Positions 1 to 54,064 of a stretch of DNA of 64,000 bases are shown piece after piece. The stretch is from a virus. The notes beneath the pieces were generated by a model. That model did no database searches and was not told the origin of the DNA. It saw only the letters and a program-made list of their open reading frames with translations. The stretch covers positions 37,735-101,734 of IMG/VR virus record IMGVR_UViG_3300023179_006727; one strand, written 5' to 3'. Position 1 is the stretch's first letter, and each line of letters opens with the position of its first letter. The position numbers and the translations under genes are program-made.

Positions 1-3000
1 TAAGATAATGCATTAATTAAACTATATTGTGGGTTTCTTAAAAATAATGCAGGTAATAATAACGGTGCACTATGTTGAATAATTTTATCACCATAATTAT
101 CTAAATTTGGCAAATCACGACTATTATTATTACCAACAAAATTCCCAAGTACTATTCCACTATTTTCGCAAATACTAACCCAATGATTTCGTATTCCACC
201 TAAATCAATTGTAGTTGCATTTATATTAAATGGATTATTTTCAAAATTTGCAGGAATATTATAATAAGCAACTTTACTTACTTCAGCACTTAATAATTGT
301 ACAACAATTGGTACATTAAGTTCAGTGTTTGGAATTACAATTGTAGTTTTAGCAGTAGTTGTTGTATATGTAAATTCAGTTGACTGTAAAAATTTATTAT
401 TTAACCATACTTTAACAGGATTCCAACCTGTATCAGGTAATGTAGAAATATCACAAACTACAGTTGAAAAACCTAATTTAGTATTTAAGTTAGTAGTTTC
501 AAACGTGAATGTTTGATATTGTACAGTATCTTGTACAGAATTAACCCATCCCGTTTTTTTCTGTGCAGTTAATAAGTCAGTAATATAATTTACATATCCA
601 ATATTAATATTTTCTGTTACTGTGGTCATATTATAATATGTAAATGTGTCTGTATTCATGTTACAAGTAAAATTAATATCACTTGTGTTTTCAATACTTG
701 TATATTGAATAGGAAAACCTAATATCGGGTCGTCTTCGTTAGAGGGGCCTGGGGTGTAGCTAAACAACTTAGTTCCCACAAATGTACTAGAAGGATAATA
801 ATCAGTATTACTTAAACTTATTCCATTACCATTAAAAATATTAAAAAGTGGAGGTTGATTAATTCCCATTTTAAACTGACTTAATTGCCATCCACCTGTA
901 TTATTATTCAGTTCTGAGTAATAAGCATAGGATCGACCACTATTATCATATAAAGATTCTCCTCTTGTAACTACAATTTGAGATTTATCAATGATGATGA
1001 CGTTTTTATCTTCAACAAAACTAATAACTTGTAATTTATTCTCATTAATAGTCTCATATTTTACAAGATAAACTTTATTTCTTACTTTAGGATCAACATC
1101 ATTACTAATAACTACCCTACATCCATCAAATACTATTTCACCATCTACAATGTAGTCACCAAAACTAGCTATTGCATTTCCTGCTCCCGCAGCACTAAAT
1201 GTTTGTGTGCTTAATGGCTCAGGATCATTAATATTTGCTACGGTACTACATTTAAACGTGGTTGTTGATACACCAACATTAATATCATATATATAAAAAA
1301 TTTTATCATCTATAGTTTGCCATTCTGCTGCCCATGTTTCAGGAATCCTTAAAATTACACATTGTCCTTCAACTAAAGAAACTGTAATACTATTGTCTAA
1401 TGTTGCAATTAAATCACTATTGTTTACTGTAAAAACTGCTTCTGTTGTTAAAGTAATATTTTGTATAGTAGGAATACATGGTATAATACCTTCTACGGTG
1501 CTAAACACATCATAAGAAGCAGTATCTAAAAAATCTACAAATCCTGCACTAATTATTCCATTGTTAAACAATCTTAAGTCACCATGGAATTCAATAATAG
1601 GACGCTTAGCTCTTGATTGTATATTTTGTAAATCTGCTAATGCTCGATCACTTTTAGTGTAATTATATGTTGTTTGTAAAACATCATAATGAAACCAACG
1701 ATTACTTCTAGTCCATGCATTTTTATCTTTAGATAAACGACTAATTGTAATATAATCAGGTTGAATAGGCTGATTTAAAATAACATCATAACCTGTTGAA
1801 TCATAAGGTTCCATATCATATGGAACAAAAATAGGTTGAGTGTAAGGTTCGGGAGTTGCTAAATCACTTACGGGTATTAATGTAATTGATGTGCCAACAC
1901 CATCTACGTAATATTCATTATTTAAATAATTTGATGGTTCAACATTACCTTGAAATAATATTTTTAGTCCGTTTGTAAAAACTACCCCATTTGGAGATGT
2001 ATAATTTTTTTGTCCAATAATATCATCAATATATATCGTAGAAGTACTGTTTCTTTCAAATAACTGCAATATACCAATACTGTTAGGATCATTACTATTT
2101 TGATAATATAGTCTATCCAATGCTGCGCTTAAATAGGGTATTAACTCGATTTGACCTCCTAAATTTCTAAAGAAATTTCTTGCTTGATATTGGTCACCAA
2201 GTAATACTGAAATTTTTTGTAATGTAGGTATATCTCCATCTTCTACTAACCTTATAACAATAGTTTGGTCATATCCTACTTCTATGTTAGTTAAACTTAC
2301 GTTAGTGTCTAAATATGATTCGTCATACTTAGGAAATGGCATTGCATTGTAAGGCACTGTTCTTTTTGGTGGCGGTGGACTGCGATCATTATAAAAAGTT
2401 AAATTAGTTAATGTTGTTACAGTTATACTATTATTAAGATAAATCGTGGAATTTATAATGTTAGTAACTAGAGTACCACTTGGCACACCTACACCCGACA
2501 CCATCAACCCAGGATATATATCCGTCATATCAACCACTTCAATTTCATTAACATTCGTATAATTACTAATTGGTTGTGTTACAACATTAATAATATTATT
2601 AGTATCGTAAGTAATTCTATAGTATTTTGCTTGATATGGTACCGATTCTGTGCCATAAAAAATAATACGTTTATTTTCTAAATCCTCTACTCCATCAAGT
2701 GCATTGCCAATTGCAGCTAAAGTTTTTCCATTAATTTGATCATATTCTAAAGTACAAATGATATCTACCGTTAAATCCCCAGGCAAATCATACTCATTCT
2801 GTGCATCCTTTGATGGTACCGTAAAAATTACTTCACCTGTTGTTGCCCCATTATCAGTAACACCTAATATTTCTCTTGTACTGATATTAGGATATAAAGG
2901 CTCTACCCCCTCTACCCCAGGCGTCCCTTGAATCCAAAATGGATTATTTTGTTCAAGTTTGAATTTGTATGTACCCCCACGTAACAATGGTATAATAGGG

Positions 3001-27626: not shown

Positions 27627-27634
27627 TATAAATA
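27627..27634 (+). promoter_or_regulatory. T4-type late promoter TATAAATA (same motif at 29395, 36143, 51403 on +; 7537-7544 on -; CATAAATA at 7994, 16708, 60226 on -)
   Basis: Exact T4 gp55 consensus a short distance upstream of starts of structural genes. Confidence 0.75.
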
Positions 27635-35357: not shown

Positions 35358-35434
35358 TTTCAGTAAAATCAGTTATTTACAAAATTTTTTGAAAATAACT
35401 TACCAACAAAAGGGGCACGAAAGTGCCCTTTTTT
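35358..35434 (+). repeat. 77-bp direct repeat copy 2, preceded by a 12-bp capsid remnant
   Basis: Identical to 33654-33730. TATGGATATATC at 35345-35356 equals capsid 33567-33578. Confidence 0.95.
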
Positions 35435-35537
35435 TAATTTTAGTATTTTAAGAATAAAATTTATTTCTAATTATTGAAACAGTTTATATTTAAAAATAAA
35501 TAAATAATTAGAGAATGTTAATATTTTGGGGATAAAA

Positions 35538-36131
35538 ATGGCAGAATGGGTATTAGTTGAAAATAATGAAATTATTGAATATCATGATAAATTGCCTAGG
35601 AATTGGAGAAATATTTCGGGATTACATCTGTCTATTAATGATACAGTTTTTTTAAAATCTTTAGGTTGGTTCAAGGTACAAAAAATTGCTTTGGATAATG
35701 GGCAAGTGGTATCTCATTATGATTATTCAATTTGTGATGATTATGTTTTAGAAACTCCTATTTATAAAATTTTTTCTGCAGAAGACAATTACAATATACA
35801 ACAGCATGATTTAAATCTTTTATTAGAATATGTTAGATCTGAACGTAATAAAAAATTGTTAGAATCAGATTATACACAATTAACAGATGTTATTGAAAAA
35901 CATACAGATAATGAAAAATTAGCATGGAAAACTTATAGACAAGCTTTACGTGATTTTCCTGCCACAGTACATATTGGAAATAATGTACAGAATTTGAATT
36001 GGCCTAATTTTGATAATATTCTTTTAGATTTAGAGATTAATGTTCAAAATGAGATTATTATTCAAGAAAGTATAGAAGAAAATATTCAAAATGCAGAAAA
36101 TAATCAAGAAAGTATAGAGTCTAGTATTTGA
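35538..36131 (+). CDS. Tail fibre assembly chaperone-like protein
   Basis: VRSERNKKLLESDYTQLTD...AWKTYRQALRDFP...NWP. ATG start (MAEW) preferred over TTG. Confidence 0.72.
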   Translation: MAEWVLVENNEIIEYHDKLPRNWRNISGLHLSINDTVFLKSLGWFKVQKIALDNGQVVSHYDYSICDDYVLETPIYKIFSAEDNYNIQQHDLNLLLEYVRSERNKKLLESDYTQLTDVIEKHTDNEKLAWKTYRQALRDFPATVHIGNNVQNLNWPNFDNILLDLEINVQNEIIIQESIEENIQNAENNQESIESSI

Positions 36132-36154
36132 AAAAAAATGAGTATAAATACTAA

Positions 36155-39100
36155 ATGTTATTAGCTACCTTAATACAAACAGGAACATATTTTCCTCCTG
36201 CCCCAGGTAAGCTCTTATACCTTTGGGGCAATAACACTTATGGACAATTAGGTGATGGTACTACAGTAAGTAAATCATCACCTGTTTTAGTTCCTACTTC
36301 ATCATGGAAACAAGTATCGGTTAATAGATTTTACACCGCTGCTATTCGTTCTGATAATTTATTGTTTGCTTGGGGTAGAAATAATTATGGACAGTTAGGA
36401 GATGGCACAACAGTAAACAAGTCATCACCTGTACAAATTGGTTCTTCACAATGGAAATCAGTTTCGGTTGCTACATCTAATACTACTGCGATTGATAATA
36501 ATAATAATTTGTTTATATGGGGAGCAGGTGTATCTGTAGGTGATAATTATTTTTTAATCCCTTATAAAATAAAGCAACCATCGGGTTCAACATATATTGA
36601 TTCTAGTTGGACAATGGTTAGTGTTGGTCCTTCCCATACTGCTGCTATTCGTTCTGATGGAATATTATTTACGTGGGGGTTCAATAACAATGGACAATTA
36701 GGTGACGGAACTACGGTAACTCGAACTTACCCAACTCAAATTGGCAATTTAAGTTGGAACATGGTAAGTGCAGGTGGATTACCTTCTAATAGCACTGAGT
36801 ACACATTAGGTATAACAAGTAATGGGTTACTTTATTCTTGGGGATATGGTGGTAATGGTGCTACAGCAGATGGTGATTTTTATAATCCAAATGTTATCAA
36901 ATTTCAAGTGGGAACAAGCTATATAGATTATAGTTGGACAGCCTTATCTTCAAGGGGTTCTAATTTTGTTCTTGCAGTTAGAAATGATGGACTGTTATTT
37001 TCTTGGGGCAGAAATCAATATGGTCAATTAGGTGATGGTACTACTGTTAATAAATCTACTCCTGTTCAAATTGGTAGTAGTAGTTGGATAGCTGTATCAA
37101 CAGGATCTCTACATGCCTTAGCTATACGCAGTGGTGGAACATTATTTTCTTGGGGCAGAAATAATTATGGACAGTTAGGAGATAGTACTACTGTTAATAA
37201 ATCATCACCTGTACAGATTGGTAGTAGTAGTTGGACAACTATTAGTGCATATGGTACTGTTAGTACAGGTATTAGTAACAATAATCTTTTTGTATGGGGA
37301 TTTAACGGCACGGGGTTTCGTTTGGGTTTAGGTGATGGCACAACAACAAATAGATCATCCCCCGTTCAAATCGGAGATCCTGCGATAAGTTGGCAAACTG
37401 CAGTTGCAGGTGGATATCAATCAGCGACATTGAATTCTACCAATCTATTATATACATGGGGTAGAAATAATCGAGGTCAATTAGGTAGCGGCTCTACAGT
37501 TAATAGATCATCCCTTGTACAAGTTGGTGGTAGTAGTTGGACAGCTTTAAGTATGGGCATGAGTCATACTGTAGGTATTCGTTCAGATGGAATATTATTT
37601 GCTTGGGGATTAAATAATTTTGGACAATTAGGAGATGGTACTGGAATTAGTAGATCTTCCCCTGTACAAATTGGTAGTAGTAGTTGGATTGCTGTACGTG
37701 CAGGATCATATCACACTGTTGCAATAAGAAGTGGTGGAACATTATTTACTTGGGGTAGCAATTTTTTATCACAATTGGGAGACGGAAATTCACAAGGTAC
37801 GACTGTGATCTCGCCCGTACAAATTGGTAGCAGTAGTTGGACAGCGATAGCTGCAGGTTCAACTTTTAGTGCAGGTATATCGGATGGATTATTATATGCA
37901 TGGGGATATAATTCAAACGGACAAATTGCAGTAAGTGGTTCAACCCAAATATATAATTGGATAAGTACTAGTTCGGGTACTGATATGCATGCTGCGATTC
38001 GTAGTGATGGTTATTTATTTGCATGGGGTTTAAATTCATATGGTCGATTAGGTGATGGCACGACTATTAATAAATCATCACCTGTACAAATTGGTAGTAG
38101 TAGTTGGATTGCAGTTAGTGTGGGACAAAACTTTACTTCTGCAATACAAAGTGGTGGTACATTATTTACATGGGGGAGAAATACTTTTGGGCAATTAGGT
38201 GATGGTACTACAGTCGATAAATCATCACCTGTACAAATTGGTAGCAGTAGTTGGACAAGCGTTGCAGCAGGTGGTAGTCATGTTGTTGCAATTCGTTCTG
38301 ATGGTTTATTATTTGCTTGGGGTAACAATAATTTAGGACGATTGGGTGATGGTACTACTGTTAATAAATCATCTCCCGTACAAATTGGTAGTAGTAGTTG
38401 GACTGCGGTATCAGGCGGAAGAAATCATACAATTGCTATTAGAAGCGGCGGAACATTGTTCGGATGGGGGGATGGAACTTTTGGACAATTAGGATACGGA
38501 TCTACACTTAGGTTAGAACCAGGTCTTCTTAGTTACCCGCAAGACACAGCAAGTTGGACAAGCGTTGCATCAGGTGCTAGTCATGTTGTTGCAATTCGTT
38601 CTGATGGTTTATTATTTGCTTGGGGTAACAATAATTATGGACAATTAGGTGATGGCACAAATATAACCCGTAGTGTTCCAACACAAATCGGCAATGATAG
38701 TTGGACTGTAATCGGGGCGGGTCGAAGAATATCAGCAGGAATTAATAGTAACGGTATAGTATATACGTGGGGATATAATACTAACGGTGAGTTAGGAAGT
38801 GGTGATACAACAAGTAGGAACGCTCCTGGAACACTTGCGTCAGGATTTAATAGTAGATCCGCAACAAGATTAGGAGTCGGAGCTAATCATATGATGGCAT
38901 ACTTTCCTACACTAGGTGATGTTTACGGTTGGGGAGTTGGCTTTAATGGGCAATTGGGAACAGGAAGTAGTGGCATTACCTATCGCCTATCAACACCTAC
39001 GCTCTTAGGTTTAGGTGGGGGTGAACCCCAAAAAATTTCATTAGGTGATCGTTTCTCATTAGTTTTAATTAGTAATGGTACTTTATTTGGAACAGGTTTA

Positions 39101-41896
39101 AATACTTATGGACAAATGAGTTCAGGAAATACAACGCAGCGAAATGTTTGGGCATCTATAGGCACGTCAATAGTATATAACGATATAGCAGCAGGTAAGG
39201 GGCATGCATTAGGTATAAGATCAACAGGTCAATTATTTGCATGGGGGAGAAATGATTTTGGGCAATTAGGTGATGGTACTACTATTAATAGACTTTCAAT
39301 GGTTTCAATTGGAGCAAGTAGTTGGTCAGCAGTTGGATCAGGTATTTATGCTAATACTTCATTAGCTATCAGAAGTGGAGGAACATTATTTAGTTGGGGA
39401 TTAAATTCATGGGGTCAATTAGGTGATGGTACTCAAATTAGTAAATCATCACCCGTACAAATTGGTAGCAGTAGTTGGATAGCAGTATCTGCGGGCGGTT
39501 TAAATTCTGTAGCTATACGAAGTGGTGGTACATTATTTACTTGGGGTTCAAATTCATATAGTCAATTAGGTACCAATTTGTCCCAAGTTTCTCCTGTGCA
39601 AGTAGGAAGTAGTAGTTGGACAGCGATAGCTGCAGGTTCAAATTTTAGTCTTGGAATAACAAATAATAATGCACTTTATGCATGGGGAAGAAATAATAAA
39701 AGTCAATTAGGCGTAGGTATTGTTCCCCTTACCGAACAATATACTCCTTTACAAGTAGGATTAGGTAATAGTTGGACAGCGATAGCAGCAGGTAATTATT
39801 TTAGTGCAGGTATAGATACTAATGGGTATTTGTACATGTGGGGTCAAGGAAATTACGGACAGTTAGGTTTAGGTAATCCTCCTATAAGTATATCTGTCAA
39901 CCAAAGAGTTATTACGCAAGTAAAATTAGGTTTAAATAATATTTTTTCTTCAGTACAATGTGGTGGCTATGGCACCTCTGCAATAGATAGCAATAATAAA
40001 TTATATGTATGGGGTAATGGCGGCAATGGTGCGAACGGTCAAAATTTAAATAATATACGCATAATTTTTAGACCATTACAAATTGGTGGTTCAAGCACTT
40101 TGCTTGGTGCAACATTTAATTCACCAACCTTAATAAATTCTTCTTCGTGGACTGCCTTATCAAGTAGCTCTGATTTTGTAGTAGGTATTAGTAGTGATAA
40201 TAAATTATTTACTTGGGGCAATAATTCGTATGGACAATTAGGCAATAATACTAAAGCTATACAATGGACAAATGTAGGGCCAAGCGCATTTCTAAAAAAT
40301 GGTTTATTATATGCATGGGGAGCAAATACTTACGGTCAATTAGGTGATGGTACTACAGTAAATAAATCTTCACCCGTACAAATTGGTAGCAGTAGTTGGA
40401 CTGCGGTAGCATTGTCTGCAGTTAATACCCAAATTTTAAATAATCGGTTTGCATTACAAACATTTGCAATACGAAGTGATGGATTATTATTTGCATGGGG
40501 ATTAAATAATTTTGGGCAATTAGGTGATGGTACGACTGTTAATAAATCATCACCGGTTCAAATTGGTAGTTCCTCATGGTCTGTAGTAGCAGGTGGCATG
40601 TACCACACTGTTGGTATTACTATTAATAATAAGTTATTTACATGGGGAAGAAATAATTATGGACAACTAGGGGATGGTACTACGGTTAATAAATCTTCCC
40701 CTGTGCAAATTGGTAGTAATGATTGGGGAATAGTTTCTGCAGGCCGTGGACTTTCTCATGCTATACGATCTGATAATCTTTTGTTTGGATGGGGAGGCAA
40801 TAATACTACTGCGGGATTCATAGGTGATAACACAACGATAAGTAGATCCTCACCTGTGCAAATTGGTAGCAGTAGTTGGACAACAGTTTCGTCTTCATCC
40901 TATGGAGCTAGTGCTATACGAAGTGGTGGTACATTATTTACATGGGGTTTAAATTCATATGGTCAATTAGGTGATGGTACTACTGTTAATAAATCTTCGC
41001 CCGTACAAGTTGATAGTAGTAGTTGGGTTGCAGTAAGTAGTGGTTGGCAACACTGTTTAGGAATTAAAGCTGGTACTAATGTTGCGGTTGGAGTATTGCT
41101 TGCTTGGGGCAGAAATCAATATGGTCAATTAGGTGATGGTACTACAGTAAATAAATCTACTCCTGTTCAAATTGGTAGTACAACAGAAGTCGATGCTCCA
41201 ACTTATACTAGTTGGATTATGATTTCAGCTAGGAGTGACAACTCATCTGGATTAAAACAAAATAATGTATTATATTTTTGGGGAAAAAATAATATTTCTC
41301 AAGTAGGGGATGGTACTACTATTAATAGACTAAATCCTTTTTTAATTCCTTATGTAAATCAAGAATTACAATCTTCATTCTTACAAAGTTTTAGTGGATC
41401 TCCTGTACAAATTGGTAATAGTAGTTGGACAGCAGTCAGTGCAGGCAACGCACATGTTGGTGCAATACGAAATGATAATTTGCTTTTTTCATGGGGATTA
41501 AATAATTTTGGGCAATTAGGTGATGGCACTACAGTAAATAAATCTTCACCCGTACAAATTGGTAGCAGTAGTTGGGCTACAATATCGGCAGGTTACAGAC
41601 ATACTGTAGCCACAACAAACAATGGCGCTTTATTTTCTTGGGGATTAAATAATTTCGGGCAATTAGGCGATGGTACTACTGTTAATAAATCATCACCTGT
41701 CTTTATTGCAGGAACTTATCAATCAAGTCTTAGATCTTGGAAATTTGTAAATACAGGTCAAGATTCTACTCTTGCTATTGATAATACCGATAAATTATAT
41801 GCTTGGGATTTGGTGTACCTAATGCAACAACGGGAATGCCGCAATTTACTGCATCAACAATTGATACAAGCAATCCATATCCTATTCGAACACTGA
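36155..41896 (+). CDS. Giant RCC1/BLIP-II beta-propeller protein, 5' part (37 blades)
   Basis: Repeats LF.WG.N..GQLGDGTTVNKSSPVQIG...W..VSAG..HT.AI. Repeat sense is lost after YAW at 41806. TATAAATA at 36143. Confidence 0.9.
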   Translation: MLLATLIQTGTYFPPAPGKLLYLWGNNTYGQLGDGTTVSKSSPVLVPTSSWKQVSVNRFYTAAIRSDNLLFAWGRNNYGQLGDGTTVNKSSPVQIGSSQWKSVSVATSNTTAIDNNNNLFIWGAGVSVGDNYFLIPYKIKQPSGSTYIDSSWTMVSVGPSHTAAIRSDGILFTWGFNNNGQLGDGTTVTRTYPTQIGNLSWNMVSAGGLPSNSTEYTLGITSNGLLYSWGYGGNGATADGDFYNPNVIKFQVGTSYIDYSWTALSSRGSNFVLAVRNDGLLFSWGRNQYGQLGDGTTVNKSTPVQIGSSSWIAVSTGSLHALAIRSGGTLFSWGRNNYGQLGDSTTVNKSSPVQIGSSSWTTISAYGTVSTGISNNNLFVWGFNGTGFRLGLGDGTTTNRSSPVQIGDPAISWQTAVAGGYQSATLNSTNLLYTWGRNNRGQLGSGSTVNRSSLVQVGGSSWTALSMGMSHTVGIRSDGILFAWGLNNFGQLGDGTGISRSSPVQIGSSSWIAVRAGSYHTVAIRSGGTLFTWGSNFLSQLGDGNSQGTTVISPVQIGSSSWTAIAAGSTFSAGISDGLLYAWGYNSNGQIAVSGSTQIYNWISTSSGTDMHAAIRSDGYLFAWGLNSYGRLGDGTTINKSSPVQIGSSSWIAVSVGQNFTSAIQSGGTLFTWGRNTFGQLGDGTTVDKSSPVQIGSSSWTSVAAGGSHVVAIRSDGLLFAWGNNNLGRLGDGTTVNKSSPVQIGSSSWTAVSGGRNHTIAIRSGGTLFGWGDGTFGQLGYGSTLRLEPGLLSYPQDTASWTSVASGASHVVAIRSDGLLFAWGNNNYGQLGDGTNITRSVPTQIGNDSWTVIGAGRRISAGINSNGIVYTWGYNTNGELGSGDTTSRNAPGTLASGFNSRSATRLGVGANHMMAYFPTLGDVYGWGVGFNGQLGTGSSGITYRLSTPTLLGLGGGEPQKISLGDRFSLVLISNGTLFGTGLNTYGQMSSGNTTQRNVWASIGTSIVYNDIAAGKGHALGIRSTGQLFAWGRNDFGQLGDGTTINRLSMVSIGASSWSAVGSGIYANTSLAIRSGGTLFSWGLNSWGQLGDGTQISKSSPVQIGSSSWIAVSAGGLNSVAIRSGGTLFTWGSNSYSQLGTNLSQVSPVQVGSSSWTAIAAGSNFSLGITNNNALYAWGRNNKSQLGVGIVPLTEQYTPLQVGLGNSWTAIAAGNYFSAGIDTNGYLYMWGQGNYGQLGLGNPPISISVNQRVITQVKLGLNNIFSSVQCGGYGTSAIDSNNKLYVWGNGGNGANGQNLNNIRIIFRPLQIGGSSTLLGATFNSPTLINSSSWTALSSSSDFVVGISSDNKLFTWGNNSYGQLGNNTKAIQWTNVGPSAFLKNGLLYAWGANTYGQLGDGTTVNKSSPVQIGSSSWTAVALSAVNTQILNNRFALQTFAIRSDGLLFAWGLNNFGQLGDGTTVNKSSPVQIGSSSWSVVAGGMYHTVGITINNKLFTWGRNNYGQLGDGTTVNKSSPVQIGSNDWGIVSAGRGLSHAIRSDNLLFGWGGNNTTAGFIGDNTTISRSSPVQIGSSSWTTVSSSSYGASAIRSGGTLFTWGLNSYGQLGDGTTVNKSSPVQVDSSSWVAVSSGWQHCLGIKAGTNVAVGVLLAWGRNQYGQLGDGTTVNKSTPVQIGSTTEVDAPTYTSWIMISARSDNSSGLKQNNVLYFWGKNNISQVGDGTTINRLNPFLIPYVNQELQSSFLQSFSGSPVQIGNSSWTAVSAGNAHVGAIRNDNLLFSWGLNNFGQLGDGTTVNKSSPVQIGSSSWATISAGYRHTVATTNNGALFSWGLNNFGQLGDGTTVNKSSPVFIAGTYQSSLRSWKFVNTGQDSTLAIDNTDKLYAWDLVYLMQQRECRNLLHQQLIQAIHILFEH

Positions 41897-44800
41897 AAAT
41901 AAAAACTGCACTTAATCCTGCTGCCTTTCCTGATTATCAATGGATTGCAGCCTCAACTTGCGGAAATATGAGTTTTGGAATACGAAATGATGGTATTTTA
42001 TTCGCATGGGGATATTCAAATAATGGTGGTTCAGGATCGCTTACAAATAAATTTGTAAATCCACCATCACCTATACTTGTACAAGGTAGCACTTTTAGCC
42101 AATTTGTTGCTGTAACTTCAGGCGATCAGCACAGTGCTGCAATTCGTAGTGGTGGTACATTATTTACTTGGGGATTAAATTCATTCGGTCAATTAGGTGA
42201 TAGTACTACAGTAAGTAAATCTTCGCCCGTACAAATTGGTAGCAGTAGTTGGACTGCAGTTTGTGCGGGATCTCAAGGATTTATTCTAGCTCTTAGATCA
42301 GATAATTTACTTTTTTCATGGGGTCGTAATCAATATGGACAATTAGGTGATGGTACTACAATTAACAAATCTTCACCTGTACAAATCGGTAGTAGTAGTT
42401 GGATTGCTATATCAGGTGGTAATGGTTTTGTTGCTGCTATTCGTTCGGGTGGTACATTATTTTCTTGGGGAAGAAATCAAAGTGGACAATTAGGTGATAG
42501 CACTACAGTTAATAAATCATCACCTGTACAAATTGGTAATAGTAGTTGGATAGCTGTATCAGCAGGAGATCAACACGTAGCTGCAATTCGTAGTGGTGGT
42601 ACATTATTTACTTGGGGATTAAATTCATTTGGTCAATTAGGTGATAGTACTACAGTTAATAAATCATCACCTGTACAAATTGGTAGCAGTAGTTGGAGTA
42701 TTTTACCTGCAGGTTTACAAAATTCAACTATGGCATTAGATCCTACAGGAACACTTTATACATGGGGCAATAATTCCAATGGACAATTAGGCGATGGCAC
42801 GTCAATCAATAAATCATCTCCTGTACAAATCGGTGGTTCGACTAAGTTTTCATATATTGCGATGGGGTTACAGACATTACCTGCATGTTTTGGGATAGCT
42901 TCAAATGGGACAATGTATTCATGGGGTGGGGATTCCACTTACCCAGGGATTGCAATCGGTAGGCCTGGGGCGTTGATTCCTGTACAAGTTGGCGCAGGGG
43001 GAATTAATGCTCAAAGTATTACATTTCAAAATTTAAATTGGTCTACCGCATCAATAGTCCAACCTGCCTCTGAAAATAAAGGTCAAGCTGCAGCAATAAC
43101 AACCAATGGTACATTATATGTGTGGGGTATTAATAATTATGGTCAATTAGGTAATGGGAATACAGTAAGACAGATTTTTCCACAACAATTGGATTCAAAT
43201 TCTTGGACTATGGTAAGTGTAGGCCAATACCATATGCTTGGCCTACTCCCCAACGACACATTATTTGCATGGGGTAGAAATCAATATGGTCAATTAGGAG
43301 ATGGTACCACAATAAATCGTTCTTCACCTGTACAGCTTGGTGGTATTACTAGATTTAATAATGGTAGTTGGACTTTAATTAATGCAGGACAACAATTAAG
43401 CGCAGGTATTGGAAAATCAAATTCATACTTGTTTACATGGGGATCAAGTAATTTAGGTCAACTAGGACGATCAATGGGTGGTTCAGCACCTTTTCAAATT
43501 GGTACATCATCATGGACAGCAGTTTCTACAGAATTTAATCAATTTGCTGCCGCAATAAAATCTGATGGATCTTTATTCACTTGGGGACAAAATTCAAGCG
43601 GACAACTTGGAGACGGCACCACAGTTAATAAATCATCACCTGTGCAAATTGGTAGTAGTAGTTGGACAGTAGCTAGTGTAGGAGGTTCGCACACTGTAGC
43701 TATACGAAGTGGTGGTACATTATTTACTTGGGGATTAAATTCAAGTGGTCAATTAGGTGATGGTACGACTGTTAATAAATCATCACCTGTTCAAATTGGA
43801 TCATCATCATGGATTGCAATTTCAGGAGGTGGATTACATTCTGCTGCAATTGATATTAATAGTTTGTTATTTACTTGGGGATTAAATTCAAGCGGACAAC
43901 TTGGAGATGGAACCACTGTTAATAAATCATCCCCCGTACAAATTGGTAGTAGTAGTTGGACAGCAGTATCTGCGGGTCCTTCTAATTCTGTAGCTATACG
44001 AAGTGGTGGTACATTATTTACTTGGGGATTAAATAGCGTAGGTCAATTAGGTGATGGTACGACTGATAATAAATCATCGCCCGTACAAATTGGCAGTAGT
44101 AGTTGGACAGCAGTTAATGCGGGTTGGGTAATAATAGATGCTATAAGAAGTGGTGGTACATTATTCACTTGGGGATCAAATTCATTTTTTATTGGAAGCA
44201 GTCGCCCCCCAGGCGGCCTCTACCCATACCAACTTGGTTATGATTCATGGGCAGCATTATCTACTACAATATCAAATTCAAGTGCCGTTCGTTCTGATGG
44301 AATATTGTTTACTTGGGGAAATAATGCATCAGGACAAATAGGAGATGGCACCACCATACAAAGAGGTAGTCCTGTACAAATTGGTAGTAGTAGTTGGACT
44401 ATTGTCAGCGTAAATCCGTCTGTTACAAGTGCGGTAAGATCTGACGGTTTATTATACGCATGGGGATCAAATACGTTTGGTGAACTTGCTGATGGCTCTT
44501 TTATCAGTAATTTTTCACCACAACTTGTTGGTTCGTCGCAACCATTTAGTTGGATTTCAATTACGGGTTGGGTAAAAGGTCATCGTGCAGCCATACGTTC
44601 AGATGGAATTTTGTTTACATGGGGAAGAAATACTCAAGGACAGTTAGGAAATGGTACAACAATCACCACTTCAAGACCTTCGCCTTTAGTATTTCCATAT
44701 AATAAAAGTCAATGGACTGCTGTAGCTGTAAGCAATTATCATTCATTAGCAATACGTAGTGATGGTTATTTATTTGCATGGGGAGCAGGTTTGTTTGGCA

Positions 44801-47800
44801 GCTTAGGTGATGGTACTACAATTAGTAAATCATCACCCGTACAAATTGGTAGCAGTAGTTGGGCTGTAGTAAGTGCAGGTGGTGCCCCATTTTCGGCAGC
44901 TATACGTAGTGGCGGCACATTGTTTACTTGGGGATTAAATTCCAATGGACAATTAGGCGATGGCACGACTATTAATAAATCATCACCTGTACAAATTGGC
45001 AGTAATAGTTGGGTTGCAGTAAGTGGTGGAAGTAACTTTATTGCTGCAATACAAAGTGGAGGTACATTATTTACATCGGGAAGAAATACTTACGGTCAAT
45101 TAGGTGATAGTACTACAGTTAATAAATCTTCCCCTGTACAAATTGGTAGCAGTAGTTGGATAGCGGTAAACGCAGGTAATTCACACACTGTAGCTATACG
45201 AAGTGGAGGTACATTATTTACATGGGGAAGAAATAATTATGGACAACTAGGGGATGGTACTACGGTTAATAAATCTTCCCCTGTACAAATTGGTAGCAGT
45301 AGTTGGATTGCAGTTGCAGCAGTTCTTGGAGGTGAAATTGGAAATGTAGGAGCAAGTTTGGGAATTACAGCGGATAATAGTTTATATACGTGGGGATCAC
45401 CAAATAATAGCCATACAGTATCTATTGCAACAAGTCCCGCAGGTTTTACAGGAGATGCTGATTGGATAAATATTAATCCTATAAAATTTGTATCTAATTC
45501 TGTATATTTTGATAATCAAAGTTGGACAAGCGTTTCATCAGGTAATAGCCATACAGTAGCTATTCGTTCCGATAATATATTATTTGCATGGGGTAAAAAT
45601 CAATATGGTCAATTAGGTGATGGTACTACTTCAGATAAATCATTGCCACAGCAAATAGGAAGTAGTAGTTGGATTGCAGTTAGTGCAGGATATAATTTTA
45701 CAAAAGCATTACTAAGTAATAGTAAATTATATACTTGGGGCAGAAATAATGTAGGACAATTGGGTGATGGTACTACAGTTAATAAATCATCTCCCGTACA
45801 AATTGGTGGTAGTAGTAGTTGGAATATAATTAGTGCGGGAAATAGTTTTTCTGCTGCGATTGATTCTGATCAATATTTGTATACATGGGGTATAAATAAT
45901 TTAGGACAATTAGGGAATAATACAACATGCAACCTCGCTATCCCAAACTTAATTCAAACCCCTACTTCATATAGTTGGACGATGATAGCAGCAGGATTAA
46001 GTCATACTGCTGCTATTCGTTCAGATGGTATATTATTTACGTGGGGCGGCAATTCAAGCGGACAAATAGGTGATGGAACTACGATTAATAGGAGCCCTGG
46101 GGTGTTCCAAGTTGGTAGTAGTAGTTGGACAGCAGTCAGTGTAAGTGATGGTGATACATATGCTATACGCAGTGATGGTCGGATTTTTGGATGGGGAAGC
46201 ATTGCTGCAGGACAGTTAGGTGATGCAGTAACAACTGTTTTGGGTTGGAATGCTTTACAAATTGGCGGTGCACAGGGACTTGGACAGGATGTTAATAATA
46301 ATATATATACTTGGGGATTGCTGGGACCACTTAATGGACCAGCATCGACCGCATCACGCTCATCACCCGTAGCAATTGGATTTTCCGCAGCTCAGGTTGA
46401 TCTAGGCGGCTTTGATTCGGCTCGTGCTTTTGCATTAGCAATCACTACTACAGGCTTATTATATGCATGGGGAAATAATGCTTATGGTCAATTAGGAGAT
46501 GGTACTATAATTAGTAGATCTTCCCCTGTACAAATTGGTAGTAGTAGTTGGACAGCAGTAAACGCAAATGCATTCAATACAGCCGCTGCGACACCGAACT
46601 CATGGTCTTTAGCAATTAGAAGTGGTGGCACATTATTTGCTTGGGGTAGAAATGCTTATGGTCAATTAGGAGATGGCACCACCGCACAAAGACTTAGTCC
46701 TGTACAAATTGGTAGTAGTAGTTGGATTGCAATTAGTGCAGGAGGGGTGCACACTGTAGCTATACGAAGCGGAGGTACATTATTTTCTTGGGGAAGAAAT
46801 CAAAATGGACAATTAGGTGATAGCACTACAGTTAATAAATCATCTCCCGTACAAATTGGTAGTAGTAGTTGGACTGCTGTTTCAGCAGGAGGTTCTCAAA
46901 ACTTAGCAATACGTAGTGATGGTTTATTATATGCATGGGGTAGAAATAATTTAGGACAATTAGGTGACGGTACTACAGTTGATAAATCTTCGCCCGTACA
47001 AATTGGTAGCAGTAGTTGGAAATTAGTATCTTCATCGGATAGTAATGGTGGAGGAATTACAATCAATGACAATTTATTTATGTGGGGAAATAATGCATCA
47101 GGACAAATAGGTGATGGTACTACAGTAAGTAAATCTTCGCCCGTACAAATTGGCGTTCCTGTACTTCCTACAGGTTATTCTTTAGGCGCAAAAGTATTAG
47201 CAGGTTCCAACTTTAGTGGAATGGTTATTAATAATAATTTATTTACATGGGGTAGAAATAATAATAGTCAATTAGGTGACGGTACTACTGTTGATAAATC
47301 AACACCTGTACAAATTAATTCCTCAGGAAGTAGTATTAATGGATCTGTGTTGAATGCTTCATTGGGTGAAAATAGTAGTTTAGCAATACGTACTGATGGA
47401 ATATTATTTGCTTGGGGAATAAATTCAAGTGGACAGTTAGGTGATGGCACTACTGTAAATAAATCTACTCCTGTACAAATTGGTAATAGTAGTTGGATTG
47501 TAGTAAGTGCAGGATTTAATAATAATGCTGCAATTCGTAGTGGAGGAACATTATTTACTTGGGGAAGTAATAGTGCAGGAGAATTAGGTGATGGTACTAC
47601 TAATAATAAATCATCTCCTGTACAAATTGGTAGTGATAGTTGGACAATGGTTTCTACAAATAATGGAAGCTCGTTAGCAATTAGATCAGATGGTTTATTA
47701 TTTACATGGGGAAATAATAGTTATGGTCAATTAGGAGATGGTACAACTGTAAATAAATCATCTCCTGTACAAATTGGTAGTAGTAGTTGGACTGCTATTA

Positions 47801-50800
47801 AAGGTGGTTATTCATCATTTGCTATTCGAACTGATGGAATATTATTTGCTTGGGGGAGAAATAATTTTGGGCAATTAGGTGACGGTACTACTGTAAATAA
47901 ATCACAACCTGTGCAAATTGGTAGTAGCAGTTGGGCTGCATTATCAATTACTGCACCATCAGATACTATGGGTGCAATTCGTAGTGGTGGAACGTTATTT
48001 ACATGGGGTAGAAATCAATATGGTCAATTAGGTGATGGTACTACTGTTAATAAATCATCTCCTGTACAAATCGGTAGTAGTAATTGGACAATGTTGGCAA
48101 TGGGTAAACTTGGTCAAACATTTGCGAATACAAGTGATGGTACATTATATGTATGGGGAGCAGGTTCTTTCGGCCAACTTGGGATTAATGACACTACAAA
48201 TCGTTCCTCTCCAACTCAATTTACAATGGGGGTTTGGTCTCAGTTATGGGTTACTACTAGTGGTACAACAGCTATATTAAGTTCTTGGGCTACTTATTAT
48301 AATAAAAGAGCCTATGTGTGGGGAGTAAATAGTTTAACCTTTGGCGGCAGGTTAGGTTTAAATGATACAATAAATAGATCATCTCCGAGTTTACTTGGAG
48401 GACAACCTGTAAGCTCTAATCAATCAAGTCCTGTACAAGTAGCATCCAATAGTTGGAATGCGGTAGACGCAGGTTCATCTCATGTTATGGCATTGAATTC
48501 TGCAAATATATTATTTACTTGGGGATTAAATTCTAGTGGTCAATTAGGTGATGGTACAACCATTAATAGATCATCACCTGTACAAATTGGCTCATCATCA
48601 TGGATTGCAATTTCAGGAGGTGGGTTACATTCTTCTGCAATTAATAGTAACAGTTTGTTATTTACTTGGGGAAATAATTCAAGTGGTCAATTGGGTGATG
48701 GCACGACTGTTAATAAATCATCACCTGTTCAAATTGGTAGCAGTAGTTGGTCAGCAGTATCAAGTGGTGGAACACACACTGTAGCTATACGAAGTGGAGG
48801 TACATTATTTACATGGGGATTAAATAGCGTAGGTCAACTAGGTGATGGTACTACGGTTAATAAATCTTCCCCTGTACAAATCGGCAGTAATAGTTGGGTT
48901 GCAGTAAGTGCGGGGTTAGCTAGTTCTGCAGCTATAGAAAATGGTACTAACTTTTTATATACATGGGGAAATAATTCCAATAGTCAATTAGGTGACGGTA
49001 CTACTGTTAATAAATCATCACCTGTTCAAATTGGTAGCAGTAGTTGGTCAATGATTAGTGTGGGTGGTAGTCATATGGCAGGTATTGTTACCACAGCTTC
49101 TGCGCTTACATGGGGTAGTAATACTCAAGGACAATTAGGAAGAAATGAGTATGAAATTTTACCATTAAAAATTGGAACAAGTAATTGGACAACGGTTAGC
49201 ACTAGTGCAGGAGGTAGTCACACTGTTGCAATACGAAGTGGTGGTACATTATTTACATGGGGAGTTAATGCACAAGGTCAATTAGGTGATGGTACTACTA
49301 TTAATAAATCTTCTCCTGTGCAAATTGGCAGTAGTAGTTGGGCAGCGATAGCAGCAGGAACAAACCATACACTTGCGATAAGAAATGGTGGTACATTATT
49401 TTCATGGGGGCTTAATGATTTTGGTCAATTAGGCGACTTAACTAAGGTTTGGAAATCATCACCTGTACAAATTGGCAGTAATAGTTGGGTTGCAGTTGTC
49501 GCAGGGCAAGTCCATTCTATGGCTCTTTCTAATGAACAAAAATTGTTTTCATGGGGTGGAAATTTTGCGGGTCAATTATCGAATGATAGTTTAACACCAA
49601 AATCATCTCCTGTTCAAATTGGTTCATCATCATTTACAATAATTTCTGCAGGATTACAATTTAATGCAGCGATAGCAAGTGGTGGAACGTTATTTACTTG
49701 GGGATCTTTCAATGTAAATTTCCCTAGTAGTCCTACTACTACTGAGCCTATATGGTTAGGCAGACCAATGGGTGGAGGGTTACCTTACAGAATACAACAA
49801 AATCAAAATTGGACGATATTAGGTCGTACAGGGGCAATAACATCAAATGGTACAATTTATACATGGGGCGTGGATAATGTTATAAGTGGTGCTGGTGCTC
49901 CTGTTTCTTGGTCTTATAGTTATCAAAACGTATCACCAATACCTACCGCAAGGGTAAATACTTTAAACACTGTAAAATCGTGGACTAATATTAGTTTAGG
50001 GTATAGTTATGTTACTGCTATTGATAGTAATAATTTATTATATACTTGGGGTCAACCTACTAATTCAATAGGACAAACTGCGGACGGTGATTACTTAAAT
50101 CCTGTACCTATAAAATTTTATCAACCACTTACATTGGATCAATACCCAACTTATTTAACACATAGTTGGGTAATGGTCTCGGCAACAGGGCTTAGAGGAA
50201 ACACAAATCTTCATACTTTAGCAATAAGATCAGATGGTTTATTATTTGCTTGGGGAAAAAATGATCAAGGACAATTAGGTGATGGCACTACCATTGAACG
50301 TACATTACCTACACAAATTGGTAGTAGTAGTTGGACAATAGTTACTGCAGGATATCGTTTATCATTAGCTATCAGAAGTGATGGTATATTATTTAATTGG
50401 GGAACAGCAATACAATCCTCACCTGTGCAGGTAGGTTCAAGTGCTTGGTCAGCAGTTAGTGCAGGAACTAATAGCCAATGGTGGCAAGCAATTCGTGCAG
50501 ATGGTTTATTATTTGCGCAAGGAAATAATGTTAGTGGACAATTGGGTGATGGTACTACTACAACTAGAAATTCTCCCGTACAAATTGGTAGTAGTAGTTG
50601 GGTTGCGGTTTCTACAGGTTATACGCATACTGTAGCTATACGAAGTGGAGGTGCATTATTTACATGGGGAGGTAATGCAAATGGTCAATTAGGGGATGGC
50701 ACTACAGTAAGTAAATCTTCGCCCGTACAAATTGGTAGTAGTAGTTGGGTAGCAATATCTGCTAGTTATAGAACATCAGGTGCTATTAGAGATGGTGGTA

Positions 50801-51381
50801 CATTATTTACTTGGGGATTAAATTCATTTGGTCAATTAGGAGATGGTACAACTGTAAATAAATCATCTCCTGTACAAATTGGTAGTAGTAGTTGGACTGC
50901 AATTGGGATCGCAGTTACTTCGAGTTTCGCTATAAAATCCAATGGATTATTATTTGCTTGGGGTGAAAATATAACCGGTAATCTTGGAGATGGTACAACT
51001 ATTAATAGGTCATCGCCCGTACAAATTGGATCATTGTCTTGGATAATGGTAACAGGAAATCGTTGGGCACAATTCGGAATAACTTCAAATAACTTGCTTT
51101 ATAGTTGGAACTCCGATTCCAATTCGGGATTCCGTTTTAATGCTCGTCCTTTTGGAGGATTAGTGCCATATCAAATTGGTTTTAGTAATTGGTCAGGAGT
51201 GAGTGCGGGTACTTCGCATGCGGTAGGTTTGACTGCAGGCAATGCATTATTTACTTGGGGATTAAATTCAAGTGGGCAACTTGGAGATGGTACAACTATT
51301 AATAGGTCATCGCCCGTACAAATTTCAGGAACTTGGGCTGGACCTAAAGCAGGGTCTGTCAATAGTGCTTCGTTACAATAA
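41803..51381 (+). CDS. Giant RCC1/BLIP-II beta-propeller protein, 3' part (61 blades); in the -1 frame of the preceding ORF, fused length about 5075 aa
   Basis: Same repeats. TTG start without SD. One extra G at 41805-41807 restores LYAWG. Confidence 0.9.
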   Translation: MGFGVPNATTGMPQFTASTIDTSNPYPIRTLKIKTALNPAAFPDYQWIAASTCGNMSFGIRNDGILFAWGYSNNGGSGSLTNKFVNPPSPILVQGSTFSQFVAVTSGDQHSAAIRSGGTLFTWGLNSFGQLGDSTTVSKSSPVQIGSSSWTAVCAGSQGFILALRSDNLLFSWGRNQYGQLGDGTTINKSSPVQIGSSSWIAISGGNGFVAAIRSGGTLFSWGRNQSGQLGDSTTVNKSSPVQIGNSSWIAVSAGDQHVAAIRSGGTLFTWGLNSFGQLGDSTTVNKSSPVQIGSSSWSILPAGLQNSTMALDPTGTLYTWGNNSNGQLGDGTSINKSSPVQIGGSTKFSYIAMGLQTLPACFGIASNGTMYSWGGDSTYPGIAIGRPGALIPVQVGAGGINAQSITFQNLNWSTASIVQPASENKGQAAAITTNGTLYVWGINNYGQLGNGNTVRQIFPQQLDSNSWTMVSVGQYHMLGLLPNDTLFAWGRNQYGQLGDGTTINRSSPVQLGGITRFNNGSWTLINAGQQLSAGIGKSNSYLFTWGSSNLGQLGRSMGGSAPFQIGTSSWTAVSTEFNQFAAAIKSDGSLFTWGQNSSGQLGDGTTVNKSSPVQIGSSSWTVASVGGSHTVAIRSGGTLFTWGLNSSGQLGDGTTVNKSSPVQIGSSSWIAISGGGLHSAAIDINSLLFTWGLNSSGQLGDGTTVNKSSPVQIGSSSWTAVSAGPSNSVAIRSGGTLFTWGLNSVGQLGDGTTDNKSSPVQIGSSSWTAVNAGWVIIDAIRSGGTLFTWGSNSFFIGSSRPPGGLYPYQLGYDSWAALSTTISNSSAVRSDGILFTWGNNASGQIGDGTTIQRGSPVQIGSSSWTIVSVNPSVTSAVRSDGLLYAWGSNTFGELADGSFISNFSPQLVGSSQPFSWISITGWVKGHRAAIRSDGILFTWGRNTQGQLGNGTTITTSRPSPLVFPYNKSQWTAVAVSNYHSLAIRSDGYLFAWGAGLFGSLGDGTTISKSSPVQIGSSSWAVVSAGGAPFSAAIRSGGTLFTWGLNSNGQLGDGTTINKSSPVQIGSNSWVAVSGGSNFIAAIQSGGTLFTSGRNTYGQLGDSTTVNKSSPVQIGSSSWIAVNAGNSHTVAIRSGGTLFTWGRNNYGQLGDGTTVNKSSPVQIGSSSWIAVAAVLGGEIGNVGASLGITADNSLYTWGSPNNSHTVSIATSPAGFTGDADWININPIKFVSNSVYFDNQSWTSVSSGNSHTVAIRSDNILFAWGKNQYGQLGDGTTSDKSLPQQIGSSSWIAVSAGYNFTKALLSNSKLYTWGRNNVGQLGDGTTVNKSSPVQIGGSSSWNIISAGNSFSAAIDSDQYLYTWGINNLGQLGNNTTCNLAIPNLIQTPTSYSWTMIAAGLSHTAAIRSDGILFTWGGNSSGQIGDGTTINRSPGVFQVGSSSWTAVSVSDGDTYAIRSDGRIFGWGSIAAGQLGDAVTTVLGWNALQIGGAQGLGQDVNNNIYTWGLLGPLNGPASTASRSSPVAIGFSAAQVDLGGFDSARAFALAITTTGLLYAWGNNAYGQLGDGTIISRSSPVQIGSSSWTAVNANAFNTAAATPNSWSLAIRSGGTLFAWGRNAYGQLGDGTTAQRLSPVQIGSSSWIAISAGGVHTVAIRSGGTLFSWGRNQNGQLGDSTTVNKSSPVQIGSSSWTAVSAGGSQNLAIRSDGLLYAWGRNNLGQLGDGTTVDKSSPVQIGSSSWKLVSSSDSNGGGITINDNLFMWGNNASGQIGDGTTVSKSSPVQIGVPVLPTGYSLGAKVLAGSNFSGMVINNNLFTWGRNNNSQLGDGTTVDKSTPVQINSSGSSINGSVLNASLGENSSLAIRTDGILFAWGINSSGQLGDGTTVNKSTPVQIGNSSWIVVSAGFNNNAAIRSGGTLFTWGSNSAGELGDGTTNNKSSPVQIGSDSWTMVSTNNGSSLAIRSDGLLFTWGNNSYGQLGDGTTVNKSSPVQIGSSSWTAIKGGYSSFAIRTDGILFAWGRNNFGQLGDGTTVNKSQPVQIGSSSWAALSITAPSDTMGAIRSGGTLFTWGRNQYGQLGDGTTVNKSSPVQIGSSNWTMLAMGKLGQTFANTSDGTLYVWGAGSFGQLGINDTTNRSSPTQFTMGVWSQLWVTTSGTTAILSSWATYYNKRAYVWGVNSLTFGGRLGLNDTINRSSPSLLGGQPVSSNQSSPVQVASNSWNAVDAGSSHVMALNSANILFTWGLNSSGQLGDGTTINRSSPVQIGSSSWIAISGGGLHSSAINSNSLLFTWGNNSSGQLGDGTTVNKSSPVQIGSSSWSAVSSGGTHTVAIRSGGTLFTWGLNSVGQLGDGTTVNKSSPVQIGSNSWVAVSAGLASSAAIENGTNFLYTWGNNSNSQLGDGTTVNKSSPVQIGSSSWSMISVGGSHMAGIVTTASALTWGSNTQGQLGRNEYEILPLKIGTSNWTTVSTSAGGSHTVAIRSGGTLFTWGVNAQGQLGDGTTINKSSPVQIGSSSWAAIAAGTNHTLAIRNGGTLFSWGLNDFGQLGDLTKVWKSSPVQIGSNSWVAVVAGQVHSMALSNEQKLFSWGGNFAGQLSNDSLTPKSSPVQIGSSSFTIISAGLQFNAAIASGGTLFTWGSFNVNFPSSPTTTEPIWLGRPMGGGLPYRIQQNQNWTILGRTGAITSNGTIYTWGVDNVISGAGAPVSWSYSYQNVSPIPTARVNTLNTVKSWTNISLGYSYVTAIDSNNLLYTWGQPTNSIGQTADGDYLNPVPIKFYQPLTLDQYPTYLTHSWVMVSATGLRGNTNLHTLAIRSDGLLFAWGKNDQGQLGDGTTIERTLPTQIGSSSWTIVTAGYRLSLAIRSDGILFNWGTAIQSSPVQVGSSAWSAVSAGTNSQWWQAIRADGLLFAQGNNVSGQLGDGTTTTRNSPVQIGSSSWVAVSTGYTHTVAIRSGGALFTWGGNANGQLGDGTTVSKSSPVQIGSSSWVAISASYRTSGAIRDGGTLFTWGLNSFGQLGDGTTVNKSSPVQIGSSSWTAIGIAVTSSFAIKSNGLLFAWGENITGNLGDGTTINRSSPVQIGSLSWIMVTGNRWAQFGITSNNLLYSWNSDSNSGFRFNARPFGGLVPYQIGFSNWSGVSAGTSHAVGLTAGNALFTWGLNSSGQLGDGTTINRSSPVQISGTWAGPKAGSVNSASLQ

Positions 51382-53389: not shown

Positions 53390-53390
53390 A

Positions 53391-54053: not shown

Positions 54054-54064
54054 ACGGAGAAAAA

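Follow-up and report, generated by a model that had tools for sequence, protein, structure and literature searches.

Ninety-eight RCC1 blades in one giant protein of a freshwater jumbo phage: a probable case of seven-bladed propellers spliced into one another

The DNA analyzed here, called the window in the following, is a stretch of 64,000 nucleotides (positions 37,735 to 101,734) of the IMG/VR virus record IMGVR_UViG_3300023179_006727, a contig of 101.7 kb that is estimated to represent 27% of its genome. The window contains T4-type structural genes, comprising baseplate wedge and hub genes and the genes of a portal protein, a prohead protease, and a gp23-like capsid protein with approximately 65% identity to the capsids of jumbo phages (Vibrio 2.275.O, Serratia BF, Pseudomonas PA5oct), and its source is an uncultured freshwater jumbo T4-like phage. 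It also carries a giant gene consisting of RCC1 repeats (Table 1), which is the subject of this study. The 98 RCC1 blades encoded by this gene form, with a probability of about 70% in our estimation, 14 seven-bladed propellers that are spliced into one another within a single late protein of 5075 residues. More than half of the sampled words of a 1-kb part of the gene (41300–42300 of the window, to which all coordinates refer) were recovered from eight runs belonging to five studies of lake, freshwater, and aquatic metagenomes dated 2018–2024. Since this part was almost intact in the metagenomes of five studies, the phage is widespread in fresh water.

The gene is interrupted by a frame break in the window as assembled. 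Two open reading frames (ORFs) in different frames, ORF1 (36155–41896) and ORF2 (41803–51381), overlap here, and the switch falls at TGGG in the WG motif of blade 37 (LYAW/GFGVP, with the slash marking the switch). Contigs in the Logan collection from four runs of four independent freshwater studies were aligned to 41300–42300. In each run, the sole contig spanning the site had one extra G behind 41804, showed no other difference, and was present at full local depth, and no alternative to the extra G was listed at the 10% reporting threshold in any of these four public assemblies covering the site. As the extra G is found in the contigs of four independent studies, the frame break at 41804 reflects either an assembly error or a rare variant. 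The original prediction for this locus, which had been made from the sequence letters without database searches, treated ORF1 and ORF2 as one gene, and this is borne out by the single 5075-aa ORF that results. The break as assembled could otherwise be taken for two separate proteins of 1913 and 3192 aa or for a programmed −1 frameshift at 41804, but this alternative is hardly credible given the extra G in all four assemblies, the nature of the site, which is a G run without a slippery heptamer, and the position of the break inside a WG motif. Two genes and a programmed frameshift were rejected on the read-derived contigs of the four studies. Short metagenome contigs covering 41300–42300 contained many repeat-induced joints, which are assembly artefacts.

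A Pfam scan of the ORF1 and ORF2 proteins yielded significant matches to RCC1 families only (PF25390, PF00415, and PF13540) in both. The scores amounted to 1085 and 1986 bits for PF25390 (cut-off 150) and to 943 and 1493 bits for PF00415, which matched 29 and 48 stretches, respectively; the IMG/VR record has 82 matches to the RCC1 family. With repeats of approximately 50 aa scoring above the curated cut-off, the protein is a member of the RCC1 repeat family. The only other hit was a match to pP_pnuc_2 that stayed below the cut-off of this family (E = 7.6e-4). An N-terminal anchor domain and a trimeric fibre or beta-helix shaft, as in phage tail fibres, were not recognized by Pfam, and the stretch before the first blade strand comprises about 18 residues, although such parts may be present even where Pfam finds no match. 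For counting the blades, a hidden Markov model (HMM) was built from the protein's own 49-aa units, and a model of strands B, C, and D, refined on the family, was combined with the WG motif to call the D strands that end each blade. This gave 98 blade-closing D strands, 37 before and 61 after the frame break, of which 94 end in a true WG and four in a variant (TG, SG, QG, or WN); two more WG strings in the protein are not blade ends. The count, obtained on the fused protein, is identical to the earlier hand count of 37 + 61 and agrees with fourteen seven-bladed propellers (98 = 14 × 7). The chain begins with a lone D strand and ends with a tail containing strands A–C only (Table 1), and most complete family members in the collected loci have a similar tail of 37–54 aa. 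The total, the lone N-terminal D strand, and the A-B-C tail are all compatible with a plain linear chain as well, in which 14 consecutive propellers would each be closed by their own D strand and A-B-C velcro and the irregular linkers would be variable loops.

It is the distribution of the irregular units that argues against such a chain. The units from one WG to the next mostly had a length of 49–55 aa, but 16 were irregular (Table 1). Three lack strand A (after blades 12, 27, and 65) and three contain two A strands (after blades 26, 34, and 79), whereas the others are five opening linkers of the D..NP..IKF type (O1–O5, after blades 3, 5, 37, 60, and 90) and five closing linkers of the GRP.GG..PYQ type (here labelled by their partners as C3, C2, C1, C4, and C5, after blades 44, 47, 52, 88, and 97). 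Read as brackets, the 16 units form the non-crossing word ((()()()))(())() with eight pairs, three of them composed of a unit without strand A and a later two-A unit and five of an opening and a closing linker. The blades enclosed by the pairs number 49, 42, 14, 7, 7, 28, 14, and 7, and each level itself owns 7 or 14 blades outside of any inner pair. The ten linkers and the three blocks interrupting a GQLG...SPVQ loop that had been listed in the original prediction were all recovered at the same places with the same enclosed counts (7, 7, and 28 for linker pairs; 14, 7, and 14 for blocks), to which O1/C1 and O2/C2 add 49 and 42. The register modulo 7 was common to both members of each pair but differed between pairs (3, 5, 5, 6, 2, 4, 2, and 6), so that the brackets cannot be explained by a linear chain with a single register. 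When the 16 junctions were placed at random, all eight pairs enclosed multiples of 7 in 0 of 200,000 trials, and the analytic chance of this outcome is 1.7e-7. Furthermore, blade 27 is a lone blade between two velcro-closed inserts and therefore can sit only in a discontinuous propeller. We regard the linear chain as very unlikely, also in view of the family-wide and structural data described below.

Table 1. Features of the giant RCC1-repeat gene and its upstream region (coordinates in the window).
Feature	Position	Strand	Basis or remark
ORF with tail-fibre assembly chaperone-like domain	35526–36131	+	Pfam Phage_tail_APC, E 1.1e-14; PHROG tail fibre assembly families
TATAAATA, T4-type late-promoter-like motif, 4 nt before ATG	36143–36150	+	motif search
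Giant RCC1-repeat gene	36155–51381	+	5075 aa and 98 blades when the missing G is included
N-terminal lone D strand (PGKLLYLWG; LLYLWG at aa 20–25), proposed velcro strand of the outermost propeller	36203–36229	+	blade model
Opening linker O1, after blade 3, pairs with C1 around 49 blades	36518–36604	+	linker motif
Opening linker O2, after blade 5, pairs with C2 around 42 blades	36839–36940	+	linker motif
Unit without strand A, after blade 12, entry to putative inserted block 13–26	37901–37966	+	41-aa unit
Two-A unit, after blade 26, would close block 13–26, host resuming at blade 27	40010–40150	+	68 aa; RPLQIGG then SPTLIN
Unit without strand A, after blade 27, entry to putative inserted propeller 28–34 (aa 1368–1735)	40214–40267	+	34 aa; aligns with nine equivalent junctions in relatives
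Two-A unit, after blade 34, would close propeller 28–34, host resuming at blade 35	41279–41425	+	71 aa; NPFLIPY then SPVQIG
Frame break (TGGG here; TGGGG in other assemblies)	41804–41807	+	contigs of 4 runs, 4 studies
Opening linker O3, after blade 37, pairs with C3 around 7 blades	41804–41943	+	linker motif
Closing linker C3, after blade 44	42922–42999	+	linker motif
Closing linker C2, after blade 47	43438–43509	+	linker motif
Closing linker C1, after blade 52	44170–44247	+	linker motif
Weak opening-like linker following blade 54, potential partner of 49864–49983 (35 blades enclosed)	44461–44553	+	post hoc: resemblance to opening linkers and register
Opening linker O4, after blade 60, pairs with C4 around 28 blades	45391–45525	+	linker motif
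Weak opening-like linker following blade 63, potential partner of 49111–49188 (21 blades enclosed)	45886–45978	+	post hoc
Unit without strand A, after blade 65, entry to putative inserted block 66–79	46192–46248	+	40-aa unit
Two-A unit, after blade 79, would close block 66–79	48319–48453	+	67 aa; SSPSLLGG then SSPVQVA
Weak closing-like linker, after blade 84	49111–49188	+	GQLGRNEYEILPLKIG
Closing linker C4, after blade 88	49699–49812	+	linker motif
Irregular unit, after blade 89, weak closing candidate	49864–49983	+	post hoc
Opening linker O5, after blade 90, pairs with C5 around 7 blades	50047–50169	+	linker motif
Closing linker C5, after blade 97	51106–51192	+	linker motif
Last WG and C-terminal tail of about 40 aa, strands A–C only, proposed partner of the N-terminal D strand	51256–51378	+	blade model

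When only the eight firm pairs are counted, five bracket levels own 14 blades. Two weak pairs (after blades 54/89 and 63/84), which were recognized post hoc, would leave 7 own blades at the top level and at the O4 level, and with them added the O2 level and blocks 13–26 and 66–79 still own 14. How the five 14-blade levels are split, including a putative outer set of blades 1–3, 53, 54, 90, and 98, is accordingly worded here as a weaker suggestion than the brackets themselves; the outer propeller of the original prediction, which had exactly this composition, was reproduced with the weak pairs but depends on these weaker post hoc linker resemblances.

Relatives of the protein were collected by IMG/VR and metagenome protein searches. 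The family of phage-encoded RCC1 multi-propeller proteins is very large, and one search returned more than 4000 proteins of 1755–5586 aa at E ≤ 1e-20. There was no orthologue among the IMG/VR and metagenome relatives, of which the best were 44–47% identical, a value that reflects generic repeat identity. The absence of orthologues from these searches means that there is no architecture-matched deep alignment for the window protein. Family members were translated into bracket tokens by means of their loop lengths, after a simple tokeniser based on A-strand and BCD HMMs, which missed non-canonical A strands, had been replaced. The unit lengths fell into three groups of 49–51 aa (canonical), 33–46 aa (no A strand), and 60–72 aa (two A strands), and complete family ORFs contained 7, 14, 21, 28, 35, or 49 blades. 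Stack-matched pairs enclosed 7 (70 times), 14 (12 times), 21 (five times), 28 (three times), or 42 blades (once), so that multiples of 7 made up 55–64% of the pairs versus 14% expected. Eleven proteins could be parsed cleanly, and exactly 7 own blades were counted in 27 of their 32 closed levels and in 9 of the 11 top levels, a rule of seven per level that is not accounted for by a linear chain. One protein of 49 blades (L004) is five levels deep with 7 own blades at each level. An alignment of ten junctions, including that of the window region of blades 27–37, revealed, at 45–56% identity, a common entry linker and a conserved surplus A strand (SSPvxVG). A conserved surplus strand that follows a three-stranded blade at a distance of 7n blades is what would be expected for an inserted, velcro-closed propeller, whereas a linear chain gives no reason for it. 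Some relatives of 21–35 blades (L001, L007, L008, and L019) are free of brackets, which suits the linear chain.

The original prediction had expected insertions and deletions among homologs to come in units of seven blades. This holds at the level of architecture, where 7 own blades per level prevail. In pairwise global alignments of the relatives, gaps were scattered blade by blade; such alignments are unreliable because of the repeats. Taken together, it seems fairly probable that giant phage RCC1 proteins share a recursive grammar, in which a velcro-closed propeller is placed in a D-to-A loop, trees of two to seven or more propellers arise in the relatives and one of 14 in the window protein, and the N-terminal strand ties the outer ring. 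Some relatives have an N-terminal domain of approximately 80 aa, and some contain lectin-type domains (Laminin_G_3, Toxin_R_bind_N). Three IMG/VR loci (L026, L023, and L027) encode ORFs of 4293 to more than 7225 aa in which RCC1 blades are mixed with other domains.

AlphaFold2 models were calculated for window blades 64–84 (45886–49158; alignment of 48 rows) and for the homolog P0219, and were compared with known structures by VIA-align. P0219 comprises 1099 aa and 21 blades, is written as '(...(......)..).....' in bracket notation, and begins like the window protein (MLL...); a metagenome scan with this sequence found no close relatives. Its model had a mean predicted local distance difference test score (pLDDT) of 82.3 and contained three well-formed seven-bladed propellers (Z 26–54). 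The outer one was composed of the N-terminal strand, the last six blades, and the tail, with 14 blades looped out between, and RCC1-like domains (HERC2 RLD2, RPGR, RCC1) aligned to the range 24..1097 over 338–357 residues at 1.6–2.4 Å (Z 43–50). For P0219, the prediction at the outermost bracket is thus a discontinuous propeller. The position of the N-terminal strand in the last and not the first propeller disagrees with a linear chain and matches the ring closure by half-blades from both chain ends that had been proposed for the window protein, which has the corresponding D strand and A-B-C tail. A clean consecutive 7+7+7 solution, as a linear chain would call for, was not found in the model of blades 64–84 either.

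Several observations weigh against nesting and have to be set beside this evidence. The opening and closing linker motifs had only 4 matches among approximately 340 other family sequences, so that their interpretation depends on five pairs from a single sequence; moreover, any block of 7n blades can also be split arithmetically into consecutive sevens. The model of blades 64–84 (mean pLDDT 79.5, predicted template modelling score 0.43) had pLDDT values below 50 at both junctions and contained no well-formed discontinuous propeller, but merely a distorted ring on 28..479 (best Z 35 at about 4 Å, with RLD matches including UVR8) and nothing clean on 483..1090. The 14 blades enclosed in P0219 took the form of two consecutive propellers in the model (51..389, Z 26; 383..765, Z 54 to UVR8 with a root-mean-square deviation of 1.4 Å), and the inner nest expected from the bracket, with blades 2–5 and 13–15 as host and 6–12 as insert, was not reproduced. 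The borders chosen for the window segment relied on the weak pair after blades 63/84 and were perhaps wrong. In the consecutive solution for P0219, blade 6 is three-stranded and the second A strand of the unit between blades 12 and 13 has a pLDDT below 50, and the architecture of P0219 is common to only 5 of the 29 other rows of its alignment. This model thus appears to support nesting in part and to contradict it in part.

These structural results invite a reading in which nesting is shallow, so that structural meaning would be confined to the outermost closure, in which the N-terminal strand joins the C-terminal blades, and possibly to some of the brackets, whereas the inner blades would form consecutive tandem propellers. 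The units without strand A would then be three-stranded blades and the surplus A strands loops left from old insertions. Such an arrangement matches the AlphaFold2 output for P0219, and the 14-blade blocks 13–26 and 66–79, which have no inner brackets, suit tandem pairs in any case. However, it offers no reason for a two-A partner 7n blades further on, for the absence of crossing, for 7 own blades in 27 of 32 levels, or for the conservation of the surplus A strand, and it leaves blade 27 stranded between two closed inserts; in addition, the P0219 alignment behind it is shallow and consists mostly of proteins of other architecture. We therefore consider shallow nesting unlikely, although less so than the linear chain. 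Full nesting is strongly supported by the bracket arithmetic and in part by the homolog model. In three dimensions it is put forward here as an interpretation, with a predicted structure for the top level in a homolog only. The recursive insertion into host-blade loops claimed in the original prediction is thus partly supported, namely by the 7n brackets at different registers, the grammar of the family, and the outer ring of P0219, but not by the models of the inner nest, and its call for structure prediction was answered by one discontinuous propeller in P0219, with consecutive inner propellers there and no clean propellers in the window segment.

According to the nested model, whole propellers or tandem pairs would be spliced into the host loop between strand D of a blade and strand A of its successor, with further splicing of this kind down to several levels. 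Two types of joint may be distinguished. In the first, the insert would open with a three-stranded blade (B, C, D) that is closed as velcro by an extra A strand at the end of the insert, and the chain would then continue with the A strand of the host itself. In the second, an opening linker would start the insert with its own A strand and a closing linker would lead back to the host. This second type, formed by the O and C linkers, is private to the window protein. The most likely partners of the lone N-terminal D strand are the A-B-C strands at the C-terminus, and through this pairing the whole chain would hang off one outer propeller.

The fold itself is known and is an RCC1-like propeller. 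RCC1-like domains such as human RCC1, UVR8, the RLDs of HERC1 and HERC2, RPGR, and BLIP-II belong to the same repeat family as the window protein (PF00415, PF25390), the seven-bladed fold of UVR8 is matched closely by the model of P0219 (Z 54) and more loosely by that of the window segment (Z 35), and ring closure by strands from both chain ends is as proposed here. However, these known examples are single propellers of seven consecutive blades, whereas here 14 propellers would be present in one chain and the linkers point to propellers inside loops. The window protein is without other domains and shows no sign of guanine nucleotide exchange factor or photoreceptor function. The triple propellers of DDB1 and CPSF160 and the tandem WD40 propellers of Aip1-type proteins likewise consist of one chain with more than one propeller, and distant strands complete some of their blades, but they comprise two or three propellers of another repeat family in an essentially linear arrangement and lack recursive insertion.

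The tolerance of an RCC1-type propeller for large insertions is exemplified by UBR5, in which a UBA domain is inserted in blade 2 and dSBB domains are inserted at blade 5, or between blades 5 and 6 according to the extended data (PMC10830417; PDB 8p83, 8d4x). UBR5 was among the discontinuous matches to the P0219 model (range 24..1099). Its inserts are unrelated small domains at one level, whereas the insert proposed here is a complete propeller of the same family, placed recursively and with dedicated joints (missing-A and double-A units, O and C linkers). Among phages, the jumbo coliphage phAPEC6 encodes eleven RCC1-like proteins whose function was stated as unknown (PMC7247149), and annotated RCC1 genes also occur in phiCD211, S-SRM01, and Jenst, with adjoining tail-fibre genes in some records. 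Phage-encoded RCC1 repeats are common to these proteins and the window protein, but a nested architecture is not described for them, and the window protein exceeds them greatly in size and contains nothing but RCC1 blades. No description of propellers inside propellers was found in the literature on nested or inserted propellers and on phage RCC1 proteins. What is new from this locus is the case of 14 propellers in a single chain, the second, private type of joint, and the read-based support for an unbroken gene.

The giant gene lies in a structural context, with portal, protease, capsid, and baseplate genes nearby, a Phage_tail_APC-like ORF directly upstream, and the late-promoter-like motif TATAAATA at its ATG. 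The same motif occurs on the plus strand at 27627–27634, exactly 4 nt before the ATG of the portal gene, and a terminator-like hairpin with a T-run is located at approximately 35412–35436, before the chaperone-like ORF and after a gene for an HNH/homing endonuclease. A T4-like late start at either TATAAATA site would leave nearly no leader. The late promoter and upstream fibre chaperone named in the original prediction are thus represented by this motif and the Phage_tail_APC match, but TATAAATA is not enriched; it is rarer than chance in the window (8 found versus 16.8 expected), which counts against a late promoter. Inferred from this gene context, the protein would most likely act as a late, multivalent binding appendage of the virion, such as a host-binding fibre or decoration, with slightly better than even odds. 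The terms "branched multivalent appendage" and "virion component" are to be understood as putative descriptions that gene context suggests.

Proteins normally consist of domains in a linear row, in which a single insertion occurs now and then. If the nested reading is true, a fold inserted into itself over several levels would represent a new principle of protein architecture and define a new architectural class. Hard folding questions would arise for a chain of 5075 residues whose first and last strands perhaps lie in one blade, and phages would have a modular way to multiply, reshuffle, and vary binding surfaces on one virion appendage, propeller by propeller. Because the family is large and the gene is present in the metagenomes of several freshwater studies, the design is ecologically common, yet it is unstudied. 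Relatives of approximately 800–1100 aa, such as P0219 and the 796-aa P0237 (bracket string '(......).....'), are small enough for a direct structural test.

Further genes of the window, all on the plus strand where a strand is given, are described here for completeness. A protein of 627 aa resembling the late sigma factor gp55 (16813–18696) has its sigma-like parts at aa 8–220 and 552–618, and between them lies a LAGLIDADG domain (aa 415–494), an arrangement that looks like an intein or a homing-endonuclease insertion. The gene of the 514-aa HNH/homing endonuclease mentioned above (33775–35319) is flanked by those of the major capsid protein and the fibre-chaperone-like protein. A protein of 1084 aa (24370–27624), encoded immediately upstream of the portal gene, has a C-terminal glucosaminidase domain of the endolysin type and may be a virion-associated cell-wall hydrolase. 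The giant gene is followed by an ORF of 345 aa with unknown function (51444–52481) and, shortly downstream, by a sugar-modification cluster (52595–59591), which comprises genes for a sulfotransferase, a 2OG-Fe(II) oxygenase, FkbM and other methyltransferases, a DUF4422 protein, a DegT-type aminotransferase, and an NAD-dependent epimerase/dehydratase, and whose products might act on a virion protein or on the host surface.

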